Shown in pieces: positions 12,124-12,728 of a stretch of DNA of 12,728 nt. The notes under the pieces were generated by a model. That model made no database searches and had not been told where the DNA came from. It worked only from the letters and a program-made list of their open reading frames with translations. The DNA lies in IMG/VR virus record IMGVR_UViG_2585427793_000006, positions 1-12,728 of that record. One strand, given 5' to 3'. How positions within the stretch are numbered: position 1 is the stretch's first letter; the number at the start of each line of letters is the position of its first letter. Origin of the DNA: a virus (lineage: Duplodnaviria > Heunggongvirae > Uroviricota > Caudoviricetes). The translations under genes and the position numbers were made by a program.

Positions 12124-12146
12124 CATAAAATAAAAGGAGAGCCGCT

Positions 12147-12728
12147 TTGAATATTATTAAACTCGAAAGTTTTCGACAAATTCCGGCGAATGAGGGATTG
12201 TGCGAGAACTATTATTCAACAAATATTATTTCAGCACTGAACGAAAACGGTGTCACGCTTATCAATGATATGTCCGGTTCTGTAACATCCGTCTGTCGTG
12301 GCACTCAGGCCGTAAATACTGTAGAAAGAACGGGGCTGATTTTCACGACACCCTCATATGTCACACTGTACAGCACACTTCCGGACTTAAAAGCCTCAGC
12401 TGTACAGCTGGGATTTCGTCTGACATTAAGTGCGGGAAAGAAATATTCATCTTCGCCATCCCACATCAGGATTAATGGCTATTCATTTACAACCCCGTAT
12501 CCTGATGAAGCAGCCAGTTATTACTATGAAATTTTCGCAACGCGAAACGAAAACGGCTATGTCTCAGCCAGTCTGTACTGCAACCGCTCATTAGTTGGAA
12601 ATACATCGTTTTATGTACCAGATGACCGGACTGACAAAATTCAGGTGAGTATTGGTAGTGGTGACAATATTTTTTCATCGGGTGCATCCGGCACGTTAAT
12701 GCTGGGTGATATGTACTGTGGAACAGTG
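12147..12728 (+). CDS. Partial ORF running off the window (5' end present), unknown function. The position suggests a tail fibre or receptor-binding protein, but the sequence is atypical
   Basis: AAGGAG at 12134-12139 followed 7 nt later by TTG 12147. Frame open for 194 codons to the window edge. Markedly lower GC than the tail genes. The product contains four Cys residues. Absent from the ORF track because it is incomplete. Confidence 0.5.
   Translation, partial: MNIIKLESFRQIPANEGLCENYYSTNIISALNENGVTLINDMSGSVTSVCRGTQAVNTVERTGLIFTTPSYVTLYSTLPDLKASAVQLGFRLTLSAGKKYSSSPSHIRINGYSFTTPYPDEAASYYYEIFATRNENGYVSASLYCNRSLVGNTSFYVPDDRTDKIQVSIGSGDNIFSSGASGTLMLGDMYCGTV

Follow-up and report, generated by a model that had tools for sequence, protein, structure and literature searches.

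The open reading frame that begins with a TTG codon close to the end of the window (i.e. the whole stretch of 12,728 nucleotides analysed here) is a real and selected gene of the PHROG 8291 family. With a confidence only slightly better than even, its product is taken to be an accessory tail protein that binds carbohydrates and is docked on a string of repeats; it would form the distal half of a portable two-part module. The proximal half, a string of 17-residue repeats ending in a short hydrophobic strand, is fused in this case to the C-terminus of the baseplate wedge protein gp48 (11737–12120), and other prophages carry it on P2 gpI, on the N-terminal stub of P2 H-type fibres or on stubs of the lambda Stf type. 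The string would project from the rim of the baseplate, the normal docking site of fibres on gp48/gpI, and would hold a single copy or several of the lectin-like protein, leading to a second, probably carbohydrate-binding, adhesion device beside the canonical fibre.

The window carries a Mu-like contractile-tail module (table 1). In complete genomes this module is part of a prophage that appears intact and has an HK97-type head and lysis genes. Of 5,426 complete E. coli genomes, 57 contain the junction between gp48 and the PHROG 8291 gene with an identity of at least 95%.

Table 1. Features of the tail module and of the gp48–PHROG 8291 region, with positions numbered from the first base of the window.
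Feature	Position	Strand	Description
Sheath	2493–3989		tail module
Tube	3989–4345		tail module
Tape measure	4765–6678		tail module
gp43	6694–8085		tail module
gp44	8082–9137		tail module
gp45	9137–9670		tail module
gp46	9676–10089		tail module
gp47/J	10082–11164		tail module
gp48/YmfQ	11164–12123	+	tail module; 319 aa
gp48/YmfQ core, residues 1–191	11164–11736	+	BW3 class wedge, counterpart of P2 gpI and T4 gp7
gp48 extension, residues 192–319 plus stop codon	11737–12123	+	128 extra residues; proposed string/adaptor
First hydrophobic variant motif GVHFAVV, gp48 residues 222–228	11827–11847	+	
Terminal hydrophobic motif GLHFAVV, gp48 residues 310–316	12091–12111	+	in the last repeat, PLLINHPGLHFAVVTSE
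Shine-Dalgarno AAGGAG	12134–12139	+	7-nt spacer to TTG 12147–12149
PHROG 8291 gene, partial	12147–12728	+	first 194 of 349 codons; TTG start at 12147

The sequence-only reading had described an open frame starting at TTG, 7 nt downstream of an AAGGAG ribosome-binding site, and running to the edge of the window. All of these elements are present as claimed, and the same TTG is the start chosen by PGAP in E. coli genomes. The gene starts 23 nt after the TGA stop codon (12121–12123) of the gp48-like ORF, and its frame is open for 194 codons up to base 12728, a run for which we estimate a chance of approximately 1e-5 per frame with this base composition. Purine-rich Shine-Dalgarno-like sequences are found at the same distance from the start in the homologous loci, and TTG occupies the homologous start position in eight of the ten start contexts compared, the window included. 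Initiation at TTG is less efficient than at ATG, and a TTG start would fit a lower-copy accessory component, although it proves nothing. The downstream sequence, which had been called for in order to complete the frame, was obtained from identical E. coli prophages: the complete ORF consists of 349 codons specifying 349 residues, and the gene ends 468 nt past the window, the first 465 nt of these being coding and the last three the stop codon. Thus, an early closure of the frame beyond the window is ruled out. From the dN/dS ratio of approximately 0.2 (0.18–0.24 for family pairs with unsaturated dS) it follows that the gene is real and under purifying selection, a conclusion that is also based on a confident AlphaFold model and on the 27 family clusters (clustered at 90% identity) recovered from a set of 5.8 billion proteins.

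The protein matches the PHROG 8291 profile over its entire length (E 3.3e-243, 806.8 bits, residues 1–349 against positions 1–349 of 349). PHROG 8291 is annotated as being of unknown function and is a very small family of enterobacterial prophages: the 27 clusters are nearly all from E. coli, plus Raoultella, 17 representatives are found among 1.84 billion proteins, 27 prophage-type contigs of IMG/VR carry a member, and the scan of species-representative genomes returned one locus, in E. albertii. Members span 41–96% identity, with conservation spread along the whole length and a conserved N-terminus. Variation is patchy, whereas in receptor-binding proteins it is typically focused in a distal tip, and this counts against the proposed explanation. 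Scans of the 349-residue protein against Pfam and NCBIfam gave no match, and no family of the PADLOC models matched it at E ≤0.1. PDB sequences searched with profiles from the family alignment and from the repeat alignment yielded chance matches only. When 50,697 phage records were searched by megablast and tblastn, the queries being the junction, two repeat modules and the protein in its full length, there was no match except one at chance level (E 0.1); no sequenced, propagated phage carries the protein, which also weighs against the proposed explanation. As to the residues that had been singled out in the translation, the four Cys are present (C19, C50, C145 and C191) but do not form a conserved pattern: C145 is the sole Cys invariant in the family, and a conserved disulfide pattern was therefore rejected. 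The N-x-S/T-like stretches are not regarded as meaningful, and we know of no relevance of such motifs in E. coli phage proteins.

The gene had also been placed at the fibre position of the operon, i.e. in the host-range slot. This slot is instead taken by the next gene, directly 3′ of the 349-codon ORF, which codes for a protein of 336–369 residues with a canonical fibre N-terminus (MHRIDTPTAVKDKFGPGKNGFT; MHRIDTPTA...) and strong matches to tail-fibre PHROGs (phrog_6859, E 5e-183). The gene for the Caudo_TAP chaperone (Tfa; PF02413, E 4.6e-22) comes right after that of the fibre, so that the immediate neighbour of the PHROG 8291 ORF is the fibre and not the chaperone. Since fibre and Tfa genes are directly downstream, the ORF is additional to them and separates the wedge gene from that of the fibre, and its identification as the tail fibre itself was rejected. 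The remark that it does not resemble the N-terminus of Mu S or lambda Stf holds good and can be extended to P2 H and to any tail-fibre family of Pfam or PHROG: neither PF12571 (Phage_tail_fib), PF08400 (phage_tail_N) nor an MHRIDT-type N-terminus was found in the 349-residue protein, and the collar/shaft repeats of PF03406 (Phage_fiber_2) were also missing from it. The module occupies the same late-operon region as the Mu S/U, P2 H/G and lambda Stf/Tfa cassettes, with the same mosaic exchange, and its anchors reuse the N-terminal domains of such cassettes along with a conserved collar motif (KAPLxSPxxTGxPTTPT...IANxxFV). However, the PHROG 8291 ORF is without the domains of these cassettes, and it is accompanied by a full pair of fibre and Tfa genes.

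The sharp drop in base composition reported after gp48 is real, the GC content being 0.428 in 12124–12728 and 0.521 ± 0.031 in upstream windows of 605 nt, only 0.65% of which are as low. For the gene the value is 0.47, as opposed to 0.52–0.59 in the tail genes. The low GC value could speak for the other possibility that had been raised, namely a non-structural cargo gene (a ‘moron’) benefiting the lysogen through, for example, surface modification, exclusion or virulence. It could be added that several prophages have the gene close to one end, beside com/mom or host genes, and that all its occurrences to date are in prophages, many of which belong to enterotoxigenic E. coli (ETEC) isolates. 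However, fibre and Tfa genes are similarly low in GC; in Mu-like and P2-like contexts the gene has the wedge gene on one side and that of the fibre on the other, and it starts 1–30 nt after a structural gene, within the late operon and flanked by essential late genes. A consensus scan of the interval from gp48 to the PHROG 8291 gene showed neither a promoter-like nor a terminator-like site. Furthermore, no signal peptide was recognized on inspection of the N-terminus, no transmembrane segment was found and no PADLOC model matched, and in 39 of 41 loci the gene is linked to a repeat extension that is found only on tail-anchoring proteins. By taking these observations together, a cargo function is judged very unlikely.

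The repeat extension is best appreciated by comparing gp48 with its homologues. Its core is assigned by the match to PF10076 (E 1.7e-24, residues 13–187) and by that of residues 1–205 to phrog_203, ‘baseplate wedge subunit’. Most of the 118 homologues detected are 193–196 residues long and end where the core ends, as opposed to the 319 residues of gp48 in the window, and the extension is present in only four gp48-type homologues (P0045, P0046, P0047 and P0094). It contains seven tandem 17-residue repeats (approx. nt 11755–12120) with the consensus PLxINRxxLQSGxxTxE, and self-identity is 25.6% at an offset of 17 residues versus approximately 5% at other offsets. The internal hydrophobic motif is also found in other gp48-type anchors (L027, L035 and L020), and motifs analogous to the terminal one end the anchors of other lineages (GLSFAF, LNFAV, LQFAV, YLLV); the anchor of L008 has no hydrophobic terminal motif, a fact that counts against the proposed explanation. 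The repeats gave no match in Pfam, PHROG or PDB and none in sequenced phages, so that neither they nor the protein is seen there without the other, which is in favour of the proposed module; the profile of the repeat alignment retrieved three short fragments only from the set of 5.8 billion proteins, and a strict DNA pattern search for the repeats returned only the known loci L029–L031. In the AlphaFold model of the gp48 monomer, pLDDT is below 50 over nearly all of residues 191–319, a result that neither supports nor refutes the docking idea.

A sister prophage (L045) helps to define the mobile unit. It is 95.6% identical to the window at the DNA level from 6690 to 11737 and then diverges, and its gp48, of 196 residues, runs straight into the fibre gene. 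Because the divergence starts at approximately 11737, the mobile block consists of the repeat extension together with the PHROG 8291 ORF. Thus, the suggestion of a horizontal acquisition is retained, whereas the junction that had been placed at approximately 12124 is not: position 12124 was rejected as the recombination junction, the comparison with L045 putting the breakpoint inside gp48.

The association of repeats and family gene is not limited to gp48. A linkage survey covered the 41 loci with a family member and with upstream sequence available, and in 39 of them a same-strand upstream ORF ends in three to seven repeats of 17–18 residues, with a gap to the family gene of 30 nt or less in 37 of these 39 repeat-linked loci; at L018 and L020 a fibre gene and a Tfa gene are found between the repeat-bearing anchor and the family gene. 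L003 and L004 are without repeats and show only a 64-codon ORF, which may be a remnant; these loci, as well as the different number of repeats in sister anchors, are to be counted against the proposed explanation. The N-terminal scaffolds on which the anchors are built number at least six and are unrelated to one another, with PF10076, PF09684, PF12571 and PF08400 among them: several anchors are divergent Mu gp48-type wedges (PF10076 or phrog_203), one of which has an added Ig-like domain, and others correspond to P2 gpI (PF09684), to the domain at the N-terminus of P2 H-type fibres (PF12571) and, in several cases, to lambda Stf N-terminal stubs (PF08400). In all of them the match to wedge or fibre families is solely upstream of the repeats, which stand in place of the distal shaft and tip. 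Canonical P2 gpI has approximately 176 residues; that of the P2-like prophage L047 has 300 and carries four 18-residue repeats (PVKAINGTxINAGNVLSV) and a terminal hydrophobic strand (YGYLLVTEV), in a gene order of J, I, the distant homologue P0030, H-type fibre and Tfa. The layout of repeat string plus family gene is, therefore, kept even at deep divergence.

The position of the gene directly downstream of a repeat-bearing anchor, its supposed client, is also the usual place for fibre chaperones, and would be accounted for if the protein were an assembly chaperone for the anchor, similar to Tfa or gp38 and not kept in the virion. Such a role is regarded as scarcely credible. The protein shows no similarity to Caudo_TAP (no match to PF02413 even at E ≤1) or to other chaperone families, it is a 349-residue, confidently folded two-domain beta protein, and the anchors are without a distal domain of their own, so that the string would carry nothing without the PHROG 8291 protein.

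Structure prediction with AlphaFold2 and the family alignment yielded a confident all-beta model (pLDDT 90.3, pTM 0.89) made of two domains, the N-terminal one, of approximately 200 residues, being a concanavalin A (ConA)-like jelly-roll. The curved two-sheet beta-jelly-roll of the model superposes on known members of the ConA-like lectin/glucanase class, its best structural matches are jelly-rolls of ConA-like lectins, carbohydrate-binding modules (CBMs) and lyases, with CBM22 (PDB 1H6X) among its structural neighbours, and a Foldseek search of the PDB is in agreement. Thus, of the fibre, lectin and toxin-like folds that had been proposed for checking, the predicted one is lectin-like, which assigns the modelled protein to the lectin-type (ConA-like) fold class. 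The idea of a non-canonical receptor-binding protein in the host-range slot is partly supported, by the lectin-like predicted fold and the lack of fibre homology, but not as regards the slot, the gene being an extra one. The lyase jelly-rolls among the matches bring up a virion-borne enzyme for the cleavage of capsule or O-antigen, which would be a beta-jelly-roll lyase or glycanase akin to PL7/PL14/PL20, GH16 or GH131. Identity to any enzyme is, however, only 5–13%, and non-catalytic CBMs and lectins score as well. In PL7 enzymes the catalytic residues of the cleft are Arg, Gln, His and Tyr, with His and Tyr as the catalytic pair, whereas no His is invariant in the PHROG 8291 family. A depolymerase is, therefore, considered quite improbable.

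No solved phage protein matches the model over its full length. Among predicted viral structures, Foldseek found full-length matches (TM 0.6–0.7, with 13–16% sequence identity) with uncharacterised proteins of Casjensviridae-type siphophages, including Achromobacter AchV4 gp26, Serratia JS26, Providencia Kokobel1 and others. AchV4_0026 was identified as a virion protein by LC-MS/MS and is encoded right after a putative tail fibre (PMC7996906). It differs from the present case in that no repeat-bearing anchor is encoded upstream. Remote homology to AchV4_0026 was tried and rejected, with an hhalign probability of 0.3%.

[quoted passage not shown] T4 gp8 is the equivalent connector, and Milano gp125 and gp127 likewise connect BW3 to the tail-fibre network (PMC10811340). 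A purely architectural connector, counterpart of T4 gp8 or A511 gp105, that braces the canonical fibre and does not bind receptors, has therefore to be weighed. The gene takes the position of T4 gene 8, directly after the BW3 gene, the T4 order 6-7-8 being paralleled by gp47-gp48-ORF, and the sizes are alike (349 and 334 residues for the PHROG 8291 protein and gp8, respectively). More generally, the likeness to BW3 connectors consists of a length of approximately 335–350 residues, a beta-rich composition, a gene right after that of the BW3 wedge and a BW3 partner with an extended chain. The all-beta protein encoded beside an extended BW3 chain would match the arrangement of beads on a string, for which the seven repeats, with their low pLDDT in the monomer, are the candidate chain. 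However, the location right after the BW3 gene is found in the window and in L047 (J, I, homologue, H) but not after Stf-type stubs. At loci with lambda Stf-type or P2 H-type stubs the family gene comes after the fibre and Tfa genes, and there would be nothing to brace. By fold and by sequence the protein falls outside the gp8/gp105 family: the structures that it matches best are sugar-binding modules, T4 gp8 and A511 gp105 are absent among the top structural matches listed, and remote homology to T4 gp8 was rejected on the basis of an hhalign probability of 0.5%. Thus, a connector devoid of receptor binding, although plausible, is unlikely.

For the accessory lectin-like protein on its repeat string, two modes of docking can be envisaged. 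In the first, the string would thread across the subunits as beads on a string, as the gp104 chain of A511 does with the gp105 dimers. In the second, the hydrophobic motifs would plug into the conserved N-terminal segment of the protein, by analogy with type VI secretion (the T6SS), in which TssG, the counterpart of Mup48, is present in one copy per wedge and docks two TssK trimers, hydrophobic residues of two TssG loops entering a cavity formed by the N-terminal 15 residues of TssK (PMC6300606). The likeness lies in the two hydrophobic (G)xHFAVV motifs of the gp48 extension and in the conserved N-terminus of the putative partner; the differences are that the docking elements would belong to a C-terminal repeat extension rather than to internal loops, that the fold of the partner is another one and that the interaction is putative. 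Somewhat doubtful, although possible, is the further proposal that the string with its terminal hydrophobic strand is a previously unrecognised, scaffold-independent ‘plug’ by which the same protein could be mounted, perhaps in several copies like beads on a string, on contractile baseplates of the Mu-like and P2-like kinds (through the single-copy wedge protein gp48/gpI) and also, with Stf stubs as the carrier, on lambda-like tails.

Precedents for a distal adhesin encoded apart from its fibre stub are gp38 on gp37 of T2 and S16 and the BppU-BppL pair of the lactococcal phage TP901-1; gp38 additionally serves in the assembly of gp37. These systems share with the module adjacent genes for a short anchor and for a distal binding protein, the latter being exchangeable between phages, but their sequences and folds are unrelated to those described here, and no 17-residue repeat string is present on their anchors. 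Bacillus phage Vp4 Gp119, a gp105-like baseplate protein with CBMs, has been proposed to contribute to host binding through host sugars (PMC11406892). In this case, carbohydrate-binding jelly-roll modules are also wedge-proximal, and CBM22 (1H6X) is a structural neighbour in both; Gp119, however, unites its CBMs in one polypeptide, whereas the lectin-like module described above is a protein of its own that is paired with a repeat string.

Both parts are of known kinds, namely an accessory tail protein anchored on the wedge and a binding fold of the ConA-like type. The family, its regular 17–18-residue repeat adaptor and the grafting of the adaptor onto gp48/gpI and onto fibre stubs, across contractile and non-contractile tails, were found neither in the searchable literature nor in Pfam/PHROG annotation. 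The host range of temperate coliphages, engineered phages and tailocins is usually framed in terms of fibre plus Tfa chaperone, and the locus points to a second, portable adhesion module attached by a simple linear repeat. The immediate biological reach is modest because the family is rare, being present in approximately 1% of complete E. coli genomes besides the few representatives in the protein set. If docking took place as proposed, simple Mu/P2-type baseplates would acquire peripheral decorations similar to gp8 and gp105, and a compact ‘socket’ sequence would be available for foreign binding domains on contractile and non-contractile tails. If the plug were real, a minimal Mu/P2-type baseplate would become a dual-adhesin one, and a natural, transferable docking standard would be at hand for retargeting phages and tailocins.

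With respect to current annotation, the 349-codon ORF is labelled ‘hypothetical protein’ by PGAP in E. coli genomes, and the extended gp48 is called a truncated pseudogene, a recurrent error that would be explained, along with the label of its partner, if docking is correct.

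The gp48 gene, which lies immediately upstream of the lectin-like ORF, is listed by NCBI's pipeline PGAP as a pseudogene of 585 nt ('incomplete; missing C-terminus'). This holds for all E. coli genomes inspected, and in none of them is the C-terminal repeat extension annotated. The 319-codon gp48 ORF is intact, and the cluster of identical proteins (P0045) counts 179 member sequences. The pseudogene call is an annotation artefact, which arises because the extension is unusual.

The repeats vary in number even among close relatives. In the near-identical sister prophages L029, L030 and L031 the anchor, i.e. 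the repeat-ended upstream protein, contains four versus five copies of the 17-residue unit, with ORFs of 396 versus 413 codons (as measured from stop to stop); therefore, the array gains and loses units, presumably by slippage or unequal recombination. The anchor ORFs of these three prophages stop approximately 22 nt 5' of the member of the lectin-like family (PHROG 8291).

A P2-like prophage (L047) shares one layout with the window, at deep divergence: here gpI ends in four 18-residue repeats (PVKAINGTxINAGNVLSV) and a terminal strand, YGYLLVTEV, and is followed by a 368-aa distant homologue of the ORF product (cluster P0030), an H-type fibre and the fibre chaperone Tfa, in this order.

Coordinates of the features discussed
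Feature	Locus	Position	Pfam
Right-hand end of another Mu-like prophage	window	1-2117	
Tfa	window	48-593	PF02413
Truncated Stf-N anchor	window	580-1050	PF08400
com-like zinc-ribbon ORF	window	about 1192-1377	
mom	window	1286-2035	PF25680
gp48	window	11164-12123	
gp48	L001	11265-12224	
Canonical fibre, 3' of the ORF	L001	13328-14338	
Canonical fibre, 3' of the ORF	L002	13328-14437	
Region with gpI (300 aa), P2-like prophage	L047	4097-6107	PF09684 (gpI)
AchV4_0025, 0026 and 0027	L041	16050-19264	

The first 2.1 kb of the window belong to another prophage, of which they are the right end, and similarity to the HK97-head/Mu-tail prophage starts only at approximately 2117, within the tail-terminator gene; therefore, the window either joins two prophage pieces or has lost the head genes by deletion. 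The truncated anchor in these first 2.1 kb, which carries the lambda Stf-type N-terminal domain (Stf-N) and ends in LLSLIAEPLSQSAAES, has neither repeats nor a lectin-like gene downstream. L010 has the same Tfa/Stf-N/com/mom order, but here the repeats are still present after Stf-N and a family member precedes com.

Downstream of the ORF, the canonical fibres of L001 and L002 (336 versus 369 aa) have their N-terminal approximately 175 residues in common and differ in the C-terminal receptor-binding parts, each with a different Tfa allele, which is ordinary fibre-tip mosaicism adjoining a conserved ORF. In E. coli E200086 (NZ_CM128605) the block made of the gp48 extension, lectin-like gene, fibre and Tfa is present in two separate prophages, L001 and L040, one adjoining ydfJ and the other tRNA-Ser/hyaA; the remainder of their tail modules is unrelated or only approximately 77% identical.

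Achromobacter phage AchV4 carries three consecutive genes 3' of its putative fibre, encoding products of 333-377 aa. A Foldseek search with the ORF model lists the phage's gp26 and, as a weak match only, gp27; gp25 and gp26 were verified as virion proteins by mass spectrometry. This suggests that Casjensviridae tails are decorated with beta-sandwich proteins from tandem paralogous genes.
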